Positions 19,044 to 54,556 of a stretch of 64,000 bases of DNA are shown here, in pieces. A program made the position numbers and the translations under genes. Position 1 is the stretch's first letter. Each line of letters opens with the position of its first letter. The stretch is taken from the NCBI GenBank assembly GCA_017481035.1, contig JAFUQI010000060.1:159-64158 (forward strand). Reading direction: 5' to 3'. The notes under the pieces are model-generated. The model was not told the DNA's origin and ran no database searches. It was given only the letters and a program-made list of their open reading frames with translations. Origin of the DNA: Alphaproteobacteria bacterium (lineage in GTDB: Bacteria; Pseudomonadota; Alphaproteobacteria; RUG11792).

Positions 19044-19189
19044 TGCTAGTATTCTCCTGTGACTATATTTATATTTTACTATGTTTTGATAGTATTTGCA
19101 AATTTTGTGTGTATTGTGAAAAATATTTTGTTAACAATTATTGTTGTTGATTTTTGAACTTTCAGATTACATTAAACTTTCCATCAATC

Positions 19190-19238
19190 TTTATGGGAGT
19201 ATTAAATTCTTTCTTTAATACAAGCATTTATGTTAAAC
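19190..19238 (+). promoter_or_regulatory. Copy 1 (weakest) of the TTTATGGGAGT-N9-hexamer-N17-TTAAC-type upstream element
   Basis: TTTATGGGAGT(19190-19200)-N9-TTTCTT-N17-TTAAAC(19233-19238). A canonical TATAAT lies at 19240-19245 and the ATG is at 19274. Confidence 0.45.
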
Positions 19239-19273
19239 TTATAATGTGAACTAAATCAAATAAAGTAACTGTT

Positions 19274-22117
19274 ATGAATAAACTTTATACATATATGTTT
19301 GTGTTATCTATATCACGTATGATATATTCATGTGATGATATGTATTATATGTACGAATGTGATGATGATATACAACCTATAACTTTAATAGATAACAATA
19401 TAACTTTAAAGGATGGAGAAATAACATTAGATGATATCTCTAGACAGACAGATAGTGCAAGTACTTTAACAGAGGAAGAGAAGCAAGTTAAGTATATATT
19501 AGACTTTGACTTACCTATTGGAGAAGGAAAGTATAGAGAATATGAATATAAGATAGAAGAAATAATTAAGACTGTTACAGATGAAAACGGAAATATGTCT
19601 TATTCTAAGTATGTTGAGGCTTGGAATAATAAACATAGAGACAATAGAATAGATATATCAAAAGATTGGTTCTATGGTAATACTGTTGAGGACTTGTTGG
19701 GATTAAATATAAATAATCAAGAAGAACTAAGAAATTATTATCATAATATTCTAGTTAAACGAATTGCCAGCGATGAACGTAATCATAGAATGCTGCCAGA
19801 GTTTACTTCTTTTATAACATATGATCTTAATAATATGAAAGACGAAGAGTTTAAAGCTACGATACTTCAAGGAATACTCGTAAACATGCTTTACGGAGTA
19901 AGTCTTTCAACTTATATTGAAAAACTGAAGCATAAAATTACTAAAATGAATTATGAAGGGTTTAACGTTGCTGTAAATACACTGAAGTTAAAATTAGAAG
20001 AAGCATTTCCAAATAGCAATCCTAATGATTTAAAAAAGGAATTGTTTGGGTTTCTGCTAGATAATGACTTGATAAAGGACAACTTTGATCTTTTTGCACA
20101 AGTATACGATGCTTTCATACAATCAAACGCAACTGAACCGAAAATATATGCAGAAGAAATATCAAAAAAATTAGGGAAAGACGATAAACGGAAAGAAATT
20201 GATGGAATTATAAAAGAACTACTTAAATTAGATGCAAAGAAATTACACGAAGATGTAAACAAAAAAGAAATGTCTTTTTCTCAGTATAGAAAATATTTTT
20301 ACGTATATCCATACAATAAGAATTATAATAACAAACAAAAAATTATACAAAGAATTGACGAAGTAAAGGATGAAATATATAAAACAATTAATGATTCAGG
20401 GCTTCTTGGATTCTTAAATACTGCTTTTGTTAAGGAAGGCAATGTAGAATATGCAGATGGATTTGCGCGAGCTGAAATATTGAGTCCAACTTTTCAAGGT
20501 TACGCCACGAAGAACCAACATGGTTATATTTTAGGAAAACAAAATGTTGTTATGCTGTTCAACATAATACAACAAAAATCAGAAAACGAATATACGTACG
20601 ACATGTCGCTATGCAAAGCTATAGATTTTTCGAATTGTTTTGAAACAGATGATTACGGAGTTCCAACTGAGAACTTTTGTAATTATGTCAATTATATATG
20701 CGAACAAATAAACAAGGCTTTAAATCATGGTGTTGAAATAAAGAATGTAAATAAAGATGAAGAAATGGTTGAAAGAATATGTGTTATAAAGTCTAATAGC
20801 ACAAATGATGACATTCTTGTTACAGTAACGCAATTTTTTCCAGGAGATAGTAAGACATGTCATTTTGTATTTAACACTATCTTTAAATATCCATTTTGCA
20901 AAATTTCTGGAAACGAAGATGAACACAAAAACTTTATGGGAAAAATTTTAAAAGTAATGGGTGAACTTAAAAGAAAAAATTTTTCTAACTATGACCTGTG
21001 TCTAATAAAATCACAAGATATTTTTGAATCAAAGGAGGAATACAACAACGCTAGAGATGAATACAAAATATTTTTTGATTTTGAAAATCTTCTCAAATCG
21101 TATGAAATATGCGGTATAAATAATCTGAAAATAAATGAATTAACTTGTGATGATACAAACAAATTAATAAGCATATCTTTCGTTCAAAAAGATAATCATA
21201 GTCAAGGTAAATTTATAACAAAAAAAACAGAAGAATTGTCTATAAGTGAAGCTAATGCGTTGTTAACTAAAAATAATTATCAAGGTACAACAAACGGACT
21301 GAAAACAATAAGAATAACAAGAGATCAAGTTAAAAACGAAACAAAAATTGAAGTTGATTTTGACACAGAAAAAAAAGCTAGAACAATAAAAAAAGCTGGA
21401 ACAATTAAAGTTATAACTGATACTTGCGACACACTAACTGATGATAAACTTAAACTACTGAGATATCCAGTTTCTCTAATCCCTAGTGACTTAACGTCAT
21501 CTGAAGTACATTATAACTTTAACGGCAAAGTGATCAAAATTCAATGTCCATTTGACAAATATGAAGAATATTTGTTTAAACTTATAAAGTTATCAAATAG
21601 CGACATACAACAAGACACTTACATAGAAAAAAACGGTATATTCTTATCAGATGGAATGAATATATTGGATGACTCTGATTATGAAAGTATCAAAAAAGGT
21701 GAAATATATAGGCTTTATACTAGTACCAAAACATCACTTCATGATAAGTATAATCCATATTTTTATCAACTGGATACTAGTAACAAAGATAAAGATATAA
21801 AGGTATTAAATCCTATTAAATACGCTTATGCTAAACGCCTTTCCAAACTTTCGCCTAGTAGGATTCCAGATAAAATAAACATAATGTCGAAATCAACAGC
21901 CGAAAAACAAACAAAATTAAAATATATATTATGCACAGACGGACAGAGCTGCAAGTTTCCATTTTGGCAAATAGCAAATTTATACTATAAAGAAAATGAG
22001 TCTGGATACTTATTAATTGATAGAATAACAAAAGATTATAAAGCGAGAGGAGAGTATCGAAAGGATGTTCGGGTTTGTGCAATTAAGTCTTTACATCAAG
22101 CGACAGAGTTAGAATAG
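19274..22117 (+). CDS. Large Cys-rich orphan protein with a hydrophobic N-terminus (possible secreted or effector protein)
   Basis: 947-aa uninterrupted ORF. The N-terminus is MNKLYTYMFVLSISRMIYSC, with well over a dozen Cys, mostly in the middle and C-terminal parts. I recognise no catalytic motif. Confidence 0.6.
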   Translation: MNKLYTYMFVLSISRMIYSCDDMYYMYECDDDIQPITLIDNNITLKDGEITLDDISRQTDSASTLTEEEKQVKYILDFDLPIGEGKYREYEYKIEEIIKTVTDENGNMSYSKYVEAWNNKHRDNRIDISKDWFYGNTVEDLLGLNINNQEELRNYYHNILVKRIASDERNHRMLPEFTSFITYDLNNMKDEEFKATILQGILVNMLYGVSLSTYIEKLKHKITKMNYEGFNVAVNTLKLKLEEAFPNSNPNDLKKELFGFLLDNDLIKDNFDLFAQVYDAFIQSNATEPKIYAEEISKKLGKDDKRKEIDGIIKELLKLDAKKLHEDVNKKEMSFSQYRKYFYVYPYNKNYNNKQKIIQRIDEVKDEIYKTINDSGLLGFLNTAFVKEGNVEYADGFARAEILSPTFQGYATKNQHGYILGKQNVVMLFNIIQQKSENEYTYDMSLCKAIDFSNCFETDDYGVPTENFCNYVNYICEQINKALNHGVEIKNVNKDEEMVERICVIKSNSTNDDILVTVTQFFPGDSKTCHFVFNTIFKYPFCKISGNEDEHKNFMGKILKVMGELKRKNFSNYDLCLIKSQDIFESKEEYNNARDEYKIFFDFENLLKSYEICGINNLKINELTCDDTNKLISISFVQKDNHSQGKFITKKTEELSISEANALLTKNNYQGTTNGLKTIRITRDQVKNETKIEVDFDTEKKARTIKKAGTIKVITDTCDTLTDDKLKLLRYPVSLIPSDLTSSEVHYNFNGKVIKIQCPFDKYEEYLFKLIKLSNSDIQQDTYIEKNGIFLSDGMNILDDSDYESIKKGEIYRLYTSTKTSLHDKYNPYFYQLDTSNKDKDIKVLNPIKYAYAKRLSKLSPSRIPDKINIMSKSTAEKQTKLKYILCTDGQSCKFPFWQIANLYYKENESGYLLIDRITKDYKARGEYRKDVRVCAIKSLHQATELE

Positions 22118-22150
22118 CTATTATGGCATTTGTAACAGAATAAACCGAAA

Positions 22151-22258
22151 CAAATAGAATCATTATAGTTGTGCTAATAATATATAGTTATTGAGCATAA
22201 GCCGGCTGCGGAAAATGCGCGCGGCGCAGCCTGCTTGAATGTTCATCTTATACTAACA
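22151..22258 (+). repeat. Intergenic element of about 105 bp, copy 1 (tagaatcattatagtt...GC hairpin...tatactaa)
   Basis: Aligns by eye in the same orientation with 38225-38328. The core is ataAGCCGGCTGCggaaaatgcgcgcgGCGCAGCCTGCTTgaa. Confidence 0.75.
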
Positions 22259-22428: not shown

Positions 22429-22457
22429 TTGACAGAAAAGTGCAAAATTTTTAGAAT
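22429..22457 (+). promoter_or_regulatory. Sigma-70-type promoter for tRNA-Pro
   Basis: TTGACA(22429-22434)-N17-TAGAAT(22452-22457), ending 9 nt before the mature tRNA 5' end. Confidence 0.6.
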
Positions 22458-37857: not shown

Positions 37858-38224
37858 CGGATAACGGCATGGATACGCACTATAATACCCAAAAAGTTTT
37901 AGCAAGAAGAAAAACAATTATTGTAGCGGCACTATTACAGTAAACACATATAATTATGTAAATACAATATTAACACACCTAATTATTAATATTTTTGTTA
38001 TAATTGGTATAACTATACCTTTTCTTGTTAACGTTATTGATAATGCCAAGTTGATCAGGGCATTGACGATCATATTAATATTACGTAAATAGTGATCGCG
38101 TAATGATATCAATTGCGTAAAATTCATGCAATTATATGTTTTTTAAAAGATTTAGATTATGATGCTACATATACAATTACTCTTATTACAGCACGCTAGT
38201 TATTTTGCACAGAATTAACAAGAA

Positions 38225-38328
38225 CAAGTAGAATCATTATAGTTATACTAATTAAAAGTACATTGCTCCAAGGCAAGCAGCTGGAATTATGCAATGCGCA
38301 GCCTGCTTAAATATCTCATTATACTAAT
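38225..38328 (+). repeat. Intergenic element of about 105 bp, copy 2
   Basis: caagtagaatcattatagttatactaat...aaGGCAAGCAGCTGgaattatgcaatgcGCAGCCTGCTTaaat...attatactaa aligns with 22151-22258. Confidence 0.75.
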
Positions 38329-38995: not shown

Positions 38996-39009
38996 CATTT
39001 TCATAAACT

Positions 39010-39058
39010 TTTATGGGAGTTTTTAATTTTTGACAACATTTAAGTATGTAGGTTAACA
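39010..39058 (+). promoter_or_regulatory. Copy 2 of the TTTATGGGAGT-N9-TTGACA-N17-TTAACA upstream element (before tkt)
   Basis: The box is at 39010-39020, TTGACA at 39030-39035 and TTAACA at 39053-39058. The ATG at 39094 is 35 nt further on. Confidence 0.6.
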
Positions 39059-39093
39059 TATTGATATACCAATAAACAGATTATAAATATATT

Positions 39094-40989
39094 ATGGAAA
39101 ATAAAAATTTAGAGCTTTTTGCTAATACAATACGTTGCCTTTCAATAGATATGGTAAATGCTGCAAATTCTGGCCATCAAGGTGCTCCATTAGGATTTGC
39201 TGACGTGATGTCAGTTTTATTCAATGGTGCAATGAACTTTAATCCAGGTTGTGAAAATAGAGACAGGTTTATTTTATCTATAGGTCATGCAAGTGCTATG
39301 TTGTATTCATCTCTCTTCTTATCAGGAAAAACCTCTTTAACAATAGGTGACTTAAAGAGTTTTAGAAAGATAGGCTCTGTATGTCAAGGACATCCTGAAA
39401 TAAATAAAGATCTTGGGATAGAAATGACTACAGGTGCTTTAGGACAAGGAATAGCAACAGCTGTTGGTTTTGCGATAGCTCTTAAAAAGAAACATATAAA
39501 AAGCAAAGTTTTTGTTGTAGTCGGAGATGGAGACCTTATGGAGGGGGTATCTCATGAGGCTATGACGCTTGCATCTAAATTAAATTTAGATAATTTAATA
39601 GTGTTATTTGATGATAATGATATATGCATAGATGGTAATGCTTCAGAATTTACTACATGTAATATAGAAAGATTCAAAGCTTATGGTTTTGATATATTTA
39701 AGTCGGATGGACATGACTATGATCAAATTAAAAATACGATTGCTCAAGCTAAATCAAGCAACAGACCATCATTCATCTCATTTAAAACAAAAATTGGAAA
39801 GTTTACAGAGAAGGAAGGAACGAATAAATGTCACGGAAAATTTGTATCGCTTGAGGAAGCAAAAGCAATAAGGACAAAACTAGGACTACCAGAAGAGCCA
39901 TTTTCAATTCCAACAGAATTTATGAAAAGCAATACAACAAAACAAATTAGCAAAACAGATATAGATTTTACAGAATTGCGCAAAGTTATCAATGAAATAA
40001 AAGTCGGATTTATTAATAATCCAGAGGAAAAGTCGACTCGATACTTTGCTGGAAAAGTCTTCGAAAAACTTTCCGAGAAATTTAAATGGTTGATTGGCGG
40101 ATCTGCAGACCTATCTTCATCAAACTGCACTATATCAAGCAATAGCAAAGCTATTACAAAAGAATCATTTGAGGGTAATTATATTCACTATGGAGTAAGA
40201 GAGCATGTTATGGGGTGTATTATGAATGGTCTTGCTATAGAAGGATTTATTCCTTATGGTGGAACTTTTTTAGTGTTTAGTGATTATATGAGACCTGCTA
40301 TTAGGAATGCTGCGCTAATGGGATGCTCTCCAATTTTCGTTTTAACTCATGACTCAATTGCAGTCGGGGAGGATGGGGCGACTCACCAGCCAGTTGAACA
40401 TATTAATTCATTACGGCTTATTCCGAATCTAAATGTATTTAGACCATCATGCGACATAGAAGTTGCAGAATGTATTGAGCTTGCTATCATGAATAGAGCA
40501 ACTCCATCAGCAATACTTTTATCGCGTAATAATGTTAAAAATATAAGAATAACGCATTTTGACGATAACTTATCTTCAAAAGGTGCATACTTGTTATCAG
40601 ATTTTTTGTATAACGGAAACGAACAACTAACCATTTTTGCAACAGGTTCTGAGGTTTCATTAGCATATGAACTAAAGGAATCATTAGAAAGCTATGATAT
40701 AAGAATAGTCTCAGCTCCATGCCTCGAGATATTTAATAAACAGCCAGGAAGCTATAAATCTGATATTTTGTGGTTTAGAAAGTTATTCATAGAAGCCGGA
40801 AACACAGACTTGCTATATAAATACAAAAATAGAGATGATGATAAAGTTATAGGGATTTCAAGTTTTGGCGAATCAGGTACAGCCAAAAATTTATTTGAAA
40901 AATTTAGAATAGATGCAAAAAGCATTATAGAAGATCATTTTGAGTGCGATATATCAAAACGAGATAGAATTAATGTATACTTAAAATAA
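39094..40989 (+). CDS. tkt: Transketolase
   Basis: 631 aa. Has SGHQGAPLG and the ThDP motif GDGDLMEGVSHEA. Confidence 0.9.
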   Translation: MENKNLELFANTIRCLSIDMVNAANSGHQGAPLGFADVMSVLFNGAMNFNPGCENRDRFILSIGHASAMLYSSLFLSGKTSLTIGDLKSFRKIGSVCQGHPEINKDLGIEMTTGALGQGIATAVGFAIALKKKHIKSKVFVVVGDGDLMEGVSHEAMTLASKLNLDNLIVLFDDNDICIDGNASEFTTCNIERFKAYGFDIFKSDGHDYDQIKNTIAQAKSSNRPSFISFKTKIGKFTEKEGTNKCHGKFVSLEEAKAIRTKLGLPEEPFSIPTEFMKSNTTKQISKTDIDFTELRKVINEIKVGFINNPEEKSTRYFAGKVFEKLSEKFKWLIGGSADLSSSNCTISSNSKAITKESFEGNYIHYGVREHVMGCIMNGLAIEGFIPYGGTFLVFSDYMRPAIRNAALMGCSPIFVLTHDSIAVGEDGATHQPVEHINSLRLIPNLNVFRPSCDIEVAECIELAIMNRATPSAILLSRNNVKNIRITHFDDNLSSKGAYLLSDFLYNGNEQLTIFATGSEVSLAYELKESLESYDIRIVSAPCLEIFNKQPGSYKSDILWFRKLFIEAGNTDLLYKYKNRDDDKVIGISSFGESGTAKNLFEKFRIDAKSIIEDHFECDISKRDRINVYLK

Positions 40990-41065
40990 TATCAGCGTTT
41001 ATCACGATTATCTATGAGATTGCATTTACCACGAAAATATAATAGTTGACACAGATACATAAACA

Positions 41066-41114
41066 TTTATGGGAGTTTTTAGAGTTTGACTTATATCTTT
41101 ATACTAAGCTAACC
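41066..41114 (+). promoter_or_regulatory. Copy 3 of the upstream element (before the OMP gene)
   Basis: TTTATGGGAGT(41066-41076)-N9-TTGACT(41086-41091)-N17-CTAACC(41109-41114). The ATG is at 41152. Confidence 0.55.
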
Positions 41115-41151
41115 TATTTATATAAAGATTAAATTTTTAAGGAATAATTTT

Positions 41152-41875
41152 ATGAAACACACTAAGTTAGTTATGTTAGGTATTCTAACCTCAAGTCTAT
41201 ATGCATCCGGATTCTATGGAGGTGTTGATATAGGTGCCTCAATAATTAATGCTAAGGCTAATGGTTACGCAGGAATAAATGTACAAGAACTATTGTTTGA
41301 TATAAATAAATCCAAAGTTAAGTTAGCACCAGGAGCTTTTGTTGGTTATAAAATCAACTCAGAGGCGAATGGGGGGGGTAGAACTATCTTTTAATGCGAA
41401 TATTGGCAAGACTACATATAAGCTAGCAGACTTATATAAGTTTCGAGAAATGATAGGACAAGCTGATATGTATAAATTTACATATCTTTGTTTAAAATTG
41501 TATGAACGATTTTCTGGAACGCTGAAAGGATTAATATCGCATAAGTTCGGAGGTATAGAATTATATATAACTGGTGGGATTAAAGTTAAAAATGTTAAGT
41601 ATAGCTGTGTTGATGTGGCACAATTTAGTACAGTAAGATATACACATAATATGAACTATCAATCAAAAAAGAAAACACATATGACTCCAGTGTTAGGTTG
41701 CGGCATTAAATTTCCTTTTAAAGACAGTTGTTTTATGCGATTAGAATATACATTTGAGTTTCCAGTAAAATTGAAATTAAGCTTGGCTGAAGATCAATCA
41801 ACATGGAAGTTTGGAAGCGAACGCGTTAAACATAATGTTCATAGTATGAAACTTGGAATTGGCACAATGTTTTAA
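41152..41875 (+). pseudogene. Outer-membrane beta-barrel protein (OmpA-like/Opa-like surface antigen fold) interrupted by a G8 tract frameshift
   Basis: Has a signal peptide (MKHTKLVMLGILTSSLYASG) and a C-terminal ...MKLGIGTMF (terminal Phe). The two ORFs overlap at G8 (41371-41378). Removing one G gives ...SEANGGVELSFNANIG... as one protein of about 240 aa. Confidence 0.65.
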
Positions 41876-50932: not shown

Positions 50933-51460
50933 TTAATGTAGAGTTAATGGACGATGGCTATGTATAATATGTTTGACATATTTTGACTCGAGAACGTCCT
51001 CATCAGAACATTCGTAGATATTTTTTGCTATTTGAAGAACTGCAAATTGTAAGTCACAAGATACCTCAAATTGCTTATCAGTTATGCCTGCTGTATATAT
51101 AACTTCAATTGGATCCTTGTATCCATTTGTAATTATTATCGTTTTATCATTGCATGAATCTACTCTATATTCTATATCTTCCTTTGTTTTTTCATTAATG
51201 CGTTTTACAGAATATACTTTTATAACTTGTCTTATCGGAAGGATAACTTTTCGTGTTGGAGAAATTTCATTCGTATAATCTGTATATTTGAACTTTTTCT
51301 TTAAAATAGGTCTTTCTATATTTTTTTCTAATATATCAGTTGCCATATTAATAATTGTTTTAAGGTAACCATCTTCATGATCATGATCAATTCTTAGATG
51401 CGCTTTTAGTATTGAGATTGGTAAAACATAAGAGTTTGCCTGTTCTATTACTATATTCAT
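50933..51460 (-). CDS. Phage gp6-like head-tail connector (RcGTA g6-like)
   Basis: 175 aa. The N-terminal SILKAHLRIDHDHEDGYLKTIINMATDILEKNIERPIL is the typical connector motif. Confidence 0.6.
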   Translation of the reverse strand: MNIVIEQANSYVLPISILKAHLRIDHDHEDGYLKTIINMATDILEKNIERPILKKKFKYTDYTNEISPTRKVILPIRQVIKVYSVKRINEKTKEDIEYRVDSCNDKTIIITNGYKDPIEVIYTAGITDKQFEVSCDLQFAVLQIAKNIYECSDEDVLESKYVKHIIHSHRPLTLH

Positions 51461-51521
51461 AATTTATTTCCTTTCAAAAACGATATTTAAAACGATGGTT
51501 TTTATCTCCATCCTAAAAATA

Positions 51522-51570
51522 TGTTAACGTAGGTTAATTTTTCGTGTCAAAAAATAAAAACTCCCATAAA
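51522..51570 (-). promoter_or_regulatory. Copy 4 of the TTTATGGGAGT-N9-TTGACA-N17-TTAACA upstream element (before the GTA g6-like gene)
   Basis: On the minus strand the box is at 51570-51560, TTGACA at 51550-51545 and TTAACA at 51527-51522. The start codon is at 51460. Confidence 0.6.
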
Positions 51571-52066
51571 AATTTATGTTTTTATAAATCTTACACGTCA
51601 GAAAATGCTTTGTTTTCAATAGCTGTTAATATCTCTGTGACCAAATATATTATGCTTGGGTGCTACTATAATAGTATCGCACAACCGACATAAGTCGAAT
51701 GCAGGTATAAAGAAGATTATTAAAAGAAATGGATGTTTTCTGTGGTACTGCAATCATTTTTAGTATTATTTGCCGTTGTTTTGCTAGTGACGCATAAGTT
51801 CATTTTTTATTAATTTGATTGTTAATTCATGAACTAGCTGCCTAATATCAGCTCGACAAAAAACATATAACTTTATGTAAAAATATTATTTAATAGGTAT
51901 CAAGAGCAATATTATTTTGCGACGTATAGCTCAATTTCAGCAATCTGCTTATCGTAATGCGATTGCTATCATACAAAATACTTGTATACAAGCTTCATTG
52001 ATATAATTGAACAGAAATAAATATAATTATTAATGATTTTTGTAAGTGTTTTTTTTATTCGTTTTT

Positions 52067-53872
52067 TCAACACTCACTCGTTTCAGAGTCACAGTCTTCA
52101 TAATACTCTTGATCGCATGAATCTGTTTCTATGTTAGAAGTCCTACGATGTTGGTTTAGATAATCTATTCTATTTTGTGGCAATACAAAAACTACATGAT
52201 CTCTATCACCGTCAAATTTTATACCTGTATTATTCTCTAGCGTTTCCAACCGCATATCTTTTCTTACATTTTTTGTTAAGTATGTACAATCTAAAGGCAC
52301 CCTAAATCGAACAGGACTATCTTCTGTACCTTGTAAAGTTATTGTAAAGTTTTGTGTTTGAGTTTCTATGTATTTTGGAAGTACGCATATTGAGTCTGCT
52401 TCAAATATACATTTGCCGTTAGACGCAAATGATTCAAGATCTCTAACATCAGTAAAATCTATAATCGATTCAGATCTATTTATTAATGTCCCATTTTCTC
52501 CAATATATAAAAATGTATTGTTTGCAAATTTCATATTCCCACAATTTTCAAATTCTGCTGAACTAGATGATATGCTTAGACCAGACTTTTCTGATATTGT
52601 ACTTTTAATATCGATCTTTCCAGTAGTTGGGATGTATTCGATGATGTCAATGCCATTTTCTCGCTCGGTGAAATATTCTTTTATTATTGTTTCATTTGTT
52701 ATATTGTTATCTGCTTTCCATTTAAGTAGAGCTATATTAATTAAATTTTTTAGTGTTTTATTTGTATCAATATCTTTAAGTTCATTCATCGCAATTATTT
52801 TGAAGGAATGGGCATTCTTTTCTAGCCACTTTTTATTGTCTTTTTGCCATTTTAATATTGAATTAGCTAGATCGCTTGCATTAATGCACTCATCTATGCC
52901 TAGTTTTTTATATGTTATATGTTTGATGCCACTTTGAACTTTTTTGTGACCGTTGTTTAGAAATTTATCATTAACTATTAATGTTCCACCAGTTATATCA
53001 ATGCTATTATAATTTATTGAATCTTTTAGCAATCTTAAATTTACAAAAGTTTTATCTTTTCCTGGCTTTAAAATTATATGTCCATAATTTTTAAAACCAT
53101 TTTTATACTCAAAATTTTCTCCATTTTGGCTACCAATTATTTCCAATGTTTCATTTTGAGAAATGTGTTTTTTATCTAGTTGATCTTCTTCAAATTCAAC
53201 TGTAATATTAACTGTTTTATTAATAAACTTTATTCCTGTTTCGTCTCTAATTGCTTGTAACAAGTTCTGGTAATTTTTATTAATATATTGACATTCCTTT
53301 GGTATGATTACAATCAGTGTCTTTTTGACCTCTTTTATATTGTATAAATCTACCGTTATACATTCAGCTCTTTTAGTTATTTTCTTTGGTATTATGATTC
53401 TAGATAACTCTTTCGGTTCAAGTAAAAAATTATGCTTAGAAAGATCATAACTTTCAGACATATCAAATATACTACCTGATTCACCAATAATAACAGCACT
53501 ATCGTCAGAGCCTATAGTGCTGTTCTCTTTAAGCTTTATTATTCCACTATTGTTAATATTAATTTCACTATTAAGTATGCCTGATATATTTATTATTCCT
53601 TTTTTGCCATTATTAAAAATTCCATTTCCTGTAATTGAAACATCAGAATTTTTGCTTGTATTAAAAGTACCGTGGTTATTTATTTCTCCATTTATGACAA
53701 AAGTTATACCGGATCCGTTATTTTCAATAGAACCACCTTCCAGAACATTTATGGTATTCTTTTCTGCTAAGTCTATCGTACTGTTAACATCGCATTTTAG
53801 TTTACCGCTAATAAAAAGTCCAGAACCTGGATCGTAGTAAGCTGTGGTTTTCTTTGTAGGTTTGCCATACAA
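52067..53872 (-). CDS. Asn/Gly-turn (beta-helix-like) repeat protein with two Cys-containing GIKF modules; the frame stays open upstream to 53944
   Basis: 601 aa. Has repeats such as IENNGSGITFVINGEINNHGTF..GNGIFNNGKKGIINISG. Shows an internal duplication (...IIPKECQYINKN...ETGIKFINKTVNITVEF versus ...RVPLDCTYLTKN...NTGIKFDGDRDHVVFVL). The tail is acidic and Cys-rich. The track start is a TTG. Confidence 0.65.
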   Translation of the reverse strand: MYGKPTKKTTAYYDPGSGLFISGKLKCDVNSTIDLAEKNTINVLEGGSIENNGSGITFVINGEINNHGTFNTSKNSDVSITGNGIFNNGKKGIINISGILNSEININNSGIIKLKENSTIGSDDSAVIIGESGSIFDMSESYDLSKHNFLLEPKELSRIIIPKKITKRAECITVDLYNIKEVKKTLIVIIPKECQYINKNYQNLLQAIRDETGIKFINKTVNITVEFEEDQLDKKHISQNETLEIIGSQNGENFEYKNGFKNYGHIILKPGKDKTFVNLRLLKDSINYNSIDITGGTLIVNDKFLNNGHKKVQSGIKHITYKKLGIDECINASDLANSILKWQKDNKKWLEKNAHSFKIIAMNELKDIDTNKTLKNLINIALLKWKADNNITNETIIKEYFTERENGIDIIEYIPTTGKIDIKSTISEKSGLSISSSSAEFENCGNMKFANNTFLYIGENGTLINRSESIIDFTDVRDLESFASNGKCIFEADSICVLPKYIETQTQNFTITLQGTEDSPVRFRVPLDCTYLTKNVRKDMRLETLENNTGIKFDGDRDHVVFVLPQNRIDYLNQHRRTSNIETDSCDQEYYEDCDSETSEC

Positions 53873-53944
53873 ATCTATCTGAGTTTCTTCTTTTCCAAAA
53901 CTAAATATTGTATTCGATATTTGAAAATATTCACCATTGTCGTT

Positions 53945-54556
53945 TTAATAAAATAAACCGTTTAGGCCAAAAACATCATCTTTTCTGTATAGTTTTAATA
54001 TTTCTTGGTCGTCAACTAGTATAGTAGATTTTTTGTTATCAATGTTGACAGTAATTTCTGTAGTTTTGGGGAGCAGTTGAATTATTCCTCCACTATTATT
54101 CGTAAGTGTTCCATTTAAGAAAATCGCACTATTAGTTGAAAAATGACCTGTATTTGTCATGTTGCCCCAAATAGTAAATTCAGTGTCTGGTGATTTGGTT
54201 AATTTATCAACTGGTATGATTACATCTGCTGAGCCTACTACGTGCTGCCTATCAATAGGCTGTAAGATATGGATAAAATCATCTTGGCTGATATCGCTAT
54301 GTTTATCTGTATGATATTTTATATTACCTTCATTTTTAAAAGTACCTCTATCTGATATAACGATTTGACTTTTATTATTTACGATAATCGTATTGTTTTG
54401 TAAATTAGAGTAATCTCCATATATATTGAGTTTTTCTCCATTTAAAGTTATATCGCTATACTCATATGCTCGAGTGTTTTTGTTGTTGTTTAGGTCTGTT
54501 ATTGTTGCGGCATTAATAGTCCCAAACAGTATAAAACAGAAAAACAGACGAAACAT
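53945..54556 (-). CDS. Signal-peptide-bearing N-terminal part of the same repeat protein (ends at an in-frame TAA)
   Basis: 203 aa. Has the signal peptide MFRLFFCFILFGTINAA and motifs FKNEGNI, MTNTGHF and LTNNSGGII. It is in the same reading frame as 52067-53872. Confidence 0.6.
   Translation of the reverse strand: MFRLFFCFILFGTINAATITDLNNNKNTRAYEYSDITLNGEKLNIYGDYSNLQNNTIIVNNKSQIVISDRGTFKNEGNIKYHTDKHSDISQDDFIHILQPIDRQHVVGSADVIIPVDKLTKSPDTEFTIWGNMTNTGHFSTNSAIFLNGTLTNNSGGIIQLLPKTTEITVNIDNKKSTILVDDQEILKLYRKDDVFGLNGLFY

Follow-up and report, generated by a model that had tools for sequence, protein, structure and literature searches.

The PmrA-regulated Dot/Icm effector genes of Legionella and Coxiella are transcribed from activator-dependent sigma-70 promoters, in which the site of the regulator is located at a fixed distance. 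In sigma-70-type promoters the -35 hexamer resembles TTGACA, 16-18 nt separate it from a -10 hexamer that has A and T as its second and sixth bases, and transcripts begin 5-9 nt past the latter. The UP element, which is typical of rRNA, tRNA and ribosomal-protein promoters, is an A/T-rich stretch from -59 to -38 (AAAWWTWTTTTNNNAAA). Sigma-32 promoters consist of CTTGAA followed, after about 14-17 nt, by a CCCCATNT- or CYTATNT-like -10 element, and the promoter consensus sequences of T7, T3 and K11 contain an initiating GGGAG. Among the genes considered below, dnaK and those of OMPs are typically highly expressed. Furthermore, sequences of at least 80% identity over at least 50 nt that are located upstream of non-paralogous genes were described as putative mobile promoters (Nijveen, Matus-Garcia and van Passel, 2012; PMC3575422).

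In the whole stretch of DNA analyzed here (64 kb with a G + C content of about 32%, hereafter called the window), a 66-bp module was found upstream of four genes (Table 1). It combines a 25-bp upstream box with a -35/-10 pair and is best explained, at a probability of roughly 55%, by a box that serves as the docking site of a putative sequence-specific activator, is fused to a housekeeping promoter and marks a lineage-specific regulon. The lineage-specific instance is new and the regulatory architecture is of a familiar kind. Like the PmrA and class I sites, the module presents a box in fixed register at functionally mixed genes (surface, orphan effector-like) of a host-associated bacterium, and here the box ends 4 nt upstream of the -35 hexamer. 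Unlike PmrA sites, it has an unrelated sequence, no evident tandem repeat and a near-consensus -35 hexamer that is not replaced by the site. With the UP element it shares the position at -60 to -40 and A/T-rich flanks with phased T-tracts, whereas its invariant core is G-rich. An UP element was rejected for this GGGAG at the centre of the box and for the lack of the box at tRNA and ribosomal-protein promoters. Putative mobile promoters are similar in that related upstream sequences stand at non-homologous genes and that a promoter was replaced between sister genomes, but the similarity among module copies is confined to the functional boxes.

Table 1. Positions of the module copies in the window, of their promoter elements and of the genes downstream of them.
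Feature	Position	Strand	11-mer	-35 hexamer	-10 hexamer	Predicted start	Start codon	Basis or location
Module copy upstream of tkt (focal copy)	39001..39066	+	39010	TTGACA 39030-39035	TAACAT 39054-39059	near 39066	39094	alignment, repeat search, 10/12 sigma-70 match
Module copy upstream of the OMP gene	41057..41122	+	41066-41076	TTGACT 41086-41091	TAACCT 41110-41115	near 41122	41152	alignment, homology edges
Module copy before the gp6-like adaptor gene and the following genes of the same strand	51514..51579	-	51570-51560	TTGACA 51550-51545	TAACAT 51526-51521		51460	alignment, promoter scan, sister genome
Module copy upstream of the 947-aa orphan gene, most diverged in the window	19181..19246	+	19190	TTTCTT 19210-19215 (no match)	TAAACT 19234-19239		19274	alignment
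tkt (transketolase)	39094..40989	+						downstream of copy 39001-39066
OmpA-like beta-barrel OMP gene	41152..41875	+						downstream of copy 41057-41122; frame broken at G8 41371-41378
gp6-like head-tail adaptor gene	50933..51460	-						first gene after copy 51514-51579
947-aa orphan gene	19274..22117	+						downstream of copy 19181-19246

The core of the box is the 11-mer TTTATGGGAGT, for which the original prediction had listed four exact copies in the window, and all of them were found again at the same positions. Four exact copies versus 0.02 expected from dinucleotide-preserving shuffles, together with the lack of intermediate forms in the window (no copy with one mismatch, and copies with two mismatches at chance level with 24 versus 23.1 expected), argue that the copies are not due to chance. 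In a position-weight scan of the window the four copies reached 62-75 bits, and the next best site reached 3.9 bits, which equals the maximum in shuffled sequence. All four are intergenic, as had been claimed, with intergenic gaps making up about 12% of the window, and each is directed towards the next gene; the gene upstream of the copy at 19181 is divergent. The distance from the first base of the 11-mer to the start codon is 84 nt at 19190 and at 39010, 86 nt at 41066 and 110 nt at 51570.

The spacing of box and hexamers is identical across the four window copies, as originally described, and the focal copy at 39010 was given there as TTTATGGGAGT-N9-TTGACA-N17-TTAACA. In this register, the hexamer pairs are TTTCTT/TTAAAC at 19190, TTGACA/TTAACA at 39010, TTGACT/CTAACC at 41066 and TTGACA/TTAACA at 51570; the order of the hexamers had been listed wrongly, the copy with TTTCTT being that at 19190 and not that at 51570. 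The fixed geometry of the proposed 49-nt element could be verified, but its extent was too short, as an ungapped alignment revealed a conserved block of 66 nt.

This block has sharp edges, reaches from about -65 to +1 and begins with ACATAAA, 9 nt upstream of the 11-mer. The box has the form (A)CATAAA-NN-TTTATGGGAGTTTTTA and occupies about -65 to -41. It is followed by a gap of N4, a -35 hexamer TTGAC(A/T) at about -36 to -31 from the predicted start, a variable spacer of 18 nt, which in the four window copies ends with TAnG-y and has the G at -14, a -10 hexamer TAAC(A/C)T at -12 to -7 and finally an A/T-rich, mainly ATT, sequence. The box is partially symmetric, since CATAAA-N2-TTTATG forms a 6-N2-6 palindrome, with the invariant GGGAGT located outside of it, and no clear direct repeat was found in the box. 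In the focal copy the box (39001-39025) reads TCATAAA-CT-TTTATGGGAGTTTTTA and is separated from the -10 hexamer by the -35 hexamer and the 18-nt spacer. The box of the copy at 19181 reads CCATCAA-TC-TTTATGGGAGTATTAA, and a TATAAT (19240-19245) follows directly after the -10 hexamer of this copy.

Contigs with OMP paralogs add about 40 kb of the same genome, and about 104 kb were covered in all. The OMP paralogs on contigs L041 and L049 carry the module 86 nt upstream of their start codons, and a fourth OMP paralog has no module. A profile search of the available sequence yielded two more copies, both on contig L046. The one upstream of an M16 peptidase gene has TTTATGGAAGT (one mismatch) and TTGACA-N18-TAACAT, and the one upstream of dnaK, which is degenerate, has TATAAACATTTGTTGGAGTTTT with an identical core promoter and is followed by a leader of about 180 nt. 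In total, at least eight copies were detected in about 104 kb, of which three belong to paralogous OMP genes and are therefore not independent; all eight stand between genes and point in the direction of the next one. The four genes named originally remain in the set, which is broader and also includes dnaK, the M16 peptidase gene and two more OMP paralogs. The designation of the gp6-like gene as "GTA" is based on its gp6-like adaptor domain only, and no homolog or paralog of the 947-aa orphan besides itself was found.

A second hexamer unlike TATAAT had been the argument for a separate promoter class. This hexamer resulted from a register error of one base: after the shift, the second hexamers are TAACAT, TAACCT, TAACAT and TAAACT, which all fit TAnnnT with an 18-nt spacer, and TTGACA-N18-TAACAT reaches 10/12 in a sigma-70 consensus scan (tkt and gp6-like copies). 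The -35 hexamer is TTGACA at tkt, the gp6-like gene, the M16 peptidase gene and dnaK and TTGACT at the three OMP copies, the copy at 19190 being the exception, and in every copy an 18-nt spacer precedes TAACAT, TAACCT or TAAACT. Promoters without the box were found in the same organism upstream of rpsT (TTGATC-N18-TAATAT), at the tRNA upstream of rpmI (TTGACA-N18-TAATCT), upstream of rpsF (TTGACT-N17-TATAAT) and at tRNA-Pro, where the TTGACA-N17-TAGAAT described before was re-found at 22429-22457. The box is also absent from the promoters of rplU-rpmA and rpsP. The rpsT promoter and that of the tRNA upstream of rpmI share the N18-TAAT(A/C)T form. For these reasons a separate promoter class is unsupported, and the core promoter is ordinary, with the 25-bp box as the special part.

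Another polymerase or sigma factor, for which the box would be the promoter itself, is a very improbable explanation. Such an enzyme could be a phage-type single-subunit RNA polymerase starting from GGGAG, since the box with its roughly 25 near-invariant bases and TAT-GGGAG resembles a T7-type promoter in size and in the initiating GGGAG, or one with sigma-32, sigma-54 or an ECF sigma factor, and the presence of dnaK in the set recalls heat-shock sigma factors. However, this leaves the conserved TTGACA-N18-TAACAT unexplained. Outside of GGGAG the box does not match the T7, T3, SP6 or K11 consensus, and viral and phage collections contain no similar sequence. Compared with a 23-bp T7-like consensus (-17 to +6), only GGGAG and the A/T-rich -4 to -1 agree, the genome at hand being incomplete. 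A sigma-32 (RpoH) promoter was rejected since the candidate CATAT/CCTAT, like every CCANAT- or CYTATNT-like element, lies 20-21 nt from TTGACA instead of the expected 14-17 nt or so, and for sigma-54 the GG-N10-GC is missing.

Several known sites were compared with the module as well. The TTAAC-like motif at the -10 hexamer recalls a CtrA box (TTAA-N7-TTAAC), but the halves are separated by N9 at tkt and by N6 in the gp6-like copy, and the copies at the OMP genes and dnaK lack the first half. Sigma-54 and ECF sigma promoters, the DnaA box, IHF and Fis sites, dif/Xer, DNA uptake sequences, the LysR motif T-N11-A and a tandem OmpR-type repeat were rejected on sequence grounds.

A feature at the level of RNA or coding, i.e., a very short upstream ORF or a leader with RNA structure, is scarcely probable. 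In three of the four window copies the mini-ORFs ATG-GGA-GTT-TTT...TGA (6 codons) and TTG...TAA (8 codons) are open, and GGGAG could be a ribosome-binding site 10 nt upstream of the TTG. The geometry of the promoter, however, produces these frames by itself, their peptides show no conservation and neither ORF is intact in the copy at 19190. As single strands, the module copies fold no better than shuffled sequences (z from -1.5 to +0.5), and in a search of the window against Rfam only two tRNAs were matched and no family was found for the module.

The conservation of the module is distributed block-wise. In the three best window copies the box is identical at 23 of 25 positions, whereas the spacer between -35 and -10 is identical at just 1-4 of 12 positions, which is random for the composition. 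A run of invariant columns of this length has a p value of 0.002-0.003 in column permutations. With random spacers next to invariant boxes, the copies are old and the boxes are under sequence-specific constraint, and this block-wise conservation points to selection and not to recent copying. All substitutions among paralog copies and sister genomes are located in the NN of the box, the spacer and the leader, and none in the boxes. The eight copies thus show what is expected of transcription factor sites, namely a fixed position at unrelated genes and variation at the free positions.

Over the full 66 nt, copies of non-paralogous genes share 50-76% of their bases, and no 50-nt stretch of them exceeds 76% identity; the OMP paralog pair is the only one at 94%. 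The best non-paralogous value of 76% lies below the 80% over at least 50 nt that define putative mobile promoters (PMC3575422). The copies also do not behave like MITEs or other dispersed repeats, as their similarity is block-wise, all of them lie between genes, in the orientation of the gene that follows, and neither terminal inverted repeats nor target duplications were found at the module. An edge of a dispersed repeat, which had been named as a possible trivial origin of the window copies, is refuted in that no adjoining repeat family was found.

The sister genome GCA_054293145.1 shares 97% identity with the window in ndk-pgsA-accA and 93% in the OMP gene. At the OMP locus its homology begins at 41125, about 3 nt past the predicted start, which this boundary indirectly supports, and farther upstream another promoter (TAGAAT), a Fis-family gene and mreC replace the module and tkt. 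The gp6-like gene of the sister keeps the module with a single substitution, which is located in the variable spacer. Among the three OMP promoters, homology starts (around 41055) no more than about 10 nt away from the module's left edge, and the sequences farther upstream are unrelated. Since the edges coincide with the homology boundaries of both the paralogs and the sister, the module acts as a discrete unit in rearrangements. The replacement of the OMP promoter between sisters offers a clean natural example of rewiring by promoter exchange.

These boundaries, from the left edge at the OMP paralogs to the different promoter joined at the predicted OMP transcript start in the sister, would also suit a portable or reused 66-bp promoter without a dedicated regulator, in which the box acts constitutively, e.g., by alpha-subunit contact or by the curvature of phased T-tracts. 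The same can be said of the two direct module copies that flank tkt, the presence of other dispersed intergenic repeats in the genome, the T-tracts TTTAT and TTTTTA about 11 bp apart and the downstream genes, as dnaK and the OMPs are of a typically highly expressed kind. We nevertheless consider a promoter of this type unlikely. Random spacers beside invariant boxes speak for a spread that is not recent and for a box constrained in its sequence, the GGGAG core is G-rich in contrast to the A/T-rich UP-element consensus, and the box is missing at tRNA and ribosomal-protein promoters. Moreover, the non-paralogous pairs stay below the 80% identity of putative mobile promoters (PMC3575422), and the module lacks terminal inverted repeats and target duplications.

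The original prediction had offered, as its second option, an activator site fused to a promoter, and this option is favored by the conserved box in fixed register, the random spacer and the box-free promoters of tRNA and ribosomal-protein genes. RNA polymerase with the primary sigma factor would use the -35/-10 pair, and a putative DNA-binding protein would occupy the box just upstream of the -35 hexamer. From there, in a position that is usual for activators contacting the C-terminal domain of alpha or region 4 of sigma, the bound protein would switch all module genes together. The set known so far would comprise three OMP paralogs, dnaK, the M16 peptidase gene, the transketolase gene, the string of genes with the gp6-like gene and an M15 peptidase gene, and the 947-aa orphan. 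From the sequence we infer the transcription start, the existence of the regulator and its sign, i.e., activation or repression, as well as the co-regulation of the set. An activator is most likely since the box abuts the -35 hexamer, and the copy at 19190, which keeps the box and has no -35 match, fits activation. An OmpR/PhoB-type response regulator and a Fis-family protein are encoded in the lineage as candidate regulators, neither of them being linked to the box.

Some properties of the box speak against a regulator site. Its 11 invariant bases in six copies are stricter than most collections of transcription factor sites, and with its partial symmetry and without a clear direct repeat it resembles neither the sites of classic dimers nor the tandem sites of response regulators. 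A near-consensus -35 hexamer is unexpected at a strongly activator-dependent promoter, and the box could be constitutive or could bind a repressor instead.

The latter, an operator of a repressor or nucleoid-type protein on an intrinsically active promoter, is quite unlikely. It would be in line with the three of four window copies that have TTGAC at -35 together with an acceptable -10 hexamer, with the partial palindrome CATAAA-N2-TTTATG, which suits a helix-turn-helix dimer, and with the Fis-family gene of the lineage. Most repressor sites, however, are found downstream of the core promoter or overlapping with it, whereas -65 to -41 is the usual position of an activator. Furthermore, the copy at 19190 keeps the box without a -35 match, as predicted by activation, and the invariant GGGAGT half lies outside the palindrome.

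The activator site could, as a tentative and rather improbable extension, be part of a portable cassette, in which the site of a lineage-specific master regulator is fused to a core promoter and which is moved or exchanged exactly where transcription starts. OMPs with phase-variable poly-G tracts, a chaperone and a protease as well as metabolic and orphan genes would then be put under one switch for host interaction or development, in a Holosporales-like bacterium that is uncultured and probably lives in association with protists. How uncultured Holosporales-like bacteria regulate their genes has hardly been studied, and a crisp cis-element is a direct handle on it. The module predicts a co-regulated gene set and can be scanned for across metagenome-assembled genomes, tested against rumen metatranscriptomes and used as a bait for the regulator among the few DNA-binding proteins of a reduced genome.

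The motif CATNAANNTTTATGGGAGTNTTNA was scanned against the GTDB representative genomes (185,579), JGI metagenomes and IMG/VR, the latter also with TTTATGGGAGT-N9-TTGAC. Singleton matches in unrelated taxa were obtained, nine in GTDB, nine in JGI and three plus four in IMG/VR. None of the genome or metagenome matches had a -35 hexamer in register, and for this reason the matches were regarded as chance. The matching copy of the sister was not hit, so the reference set evidently does not contain this lineage, and the negative result from reference genomes is therefore silent on close relatives. BLAST searches of plasmids and phages yielded no match, viral collections contained nothing similar, and a literature search returned the motif only in unrelated sequences such as primers. 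On the available evidence, the element is lineage-specific.

No other sequence shares more than 66% identity with the transketolase, whose best named matches are annotated as "Holosporales bacterium". In relatives at 64-66% transketolase identity the element was not found upstream of tkt, so that a deep phylogenetic footprint is not available. Contigs from other samples (XIEF21-1, ERZ2801xxxx) are 99.6-100% identical to the window, which leaves them without footprinting power. We take the label XIEF21 to refer to the ruminant catalogue of Xie et al. 2021 and the samples, accordingly, to be presumably from ruminant gut. On two contigs, from two other samples, that correspond to the window from 39094 onward (L052 3857-4102 and L053 535-780), tkt was called as an 81-aa fragment and the contigs run on. 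This hints at a frameshift in the tkt allele of some strains, and the upstream module is identical there. The region 52067-54556 of the window contains two ORFs (601 aa and 203 aa), and on matching contigs one 829-aa orphan product was called instead.

Within the OMP genes, a poly-G tract is located at a common codon position (window 41371-41378, L045 2812-2819, L051 1240-1247 and L049 404-413). A tract of G8 disrupts the frame in the OMP gene of the window, in its ortholog in the sister and in another paralog of the sister. The intact paralog on L049 has G10, and those on L046 and L041 have an interrupted GGTGGGG. Besides a C8 at L046 18-25, the OMP tracts are the only G or C runs of at least 8 nt in the examined sequence. 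As such runs are nearly confined to the OMP paralogs, slipped-strand phase variation of this surface-protein family is likely.

In the leader of dnaK (L046 4847-5026, about 180 nt), a hairpin resembling a terminator, GAAGACG...CGTCTTTTT, immediately follows the predicted start, and a second hairpin comes after it. These hairpins may represent an attenuator or a short transcript.

Another promoter-like intergenic block is shared by 22128-22178 and 38202-38252 of the window, which are 80% identical along 51 nt and about 71% identical when about 147 nt are compared. It contains (G/T)nnACA-N17-TAGAAT, and its copies are located after the orphan gene and before a SIMPL-domain gene.

Furthermore, short G + C-rich dispersed intergenic repeats (e.g., GCGGAGCACCGCGCCATTTTCGCTGGCTGCTTATGCGCAATGCAATAA) with palindromic hairpins were found at 2210, 2482, 2558, 41899, 44357, 45057 and 58726 of the window. 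The same repeats occur at L041 76-221 and L045 88-317, are common to different contigs and to the sister genome and recall REP- or RPE-like elements. Copies of this family are included in a pair of inverted repeats of 334 nt (2271-2604 and 58705-59038), which are 96% identical, are located in two long intergenic gaps and matched nothing in Rfam at the gathering threshold.
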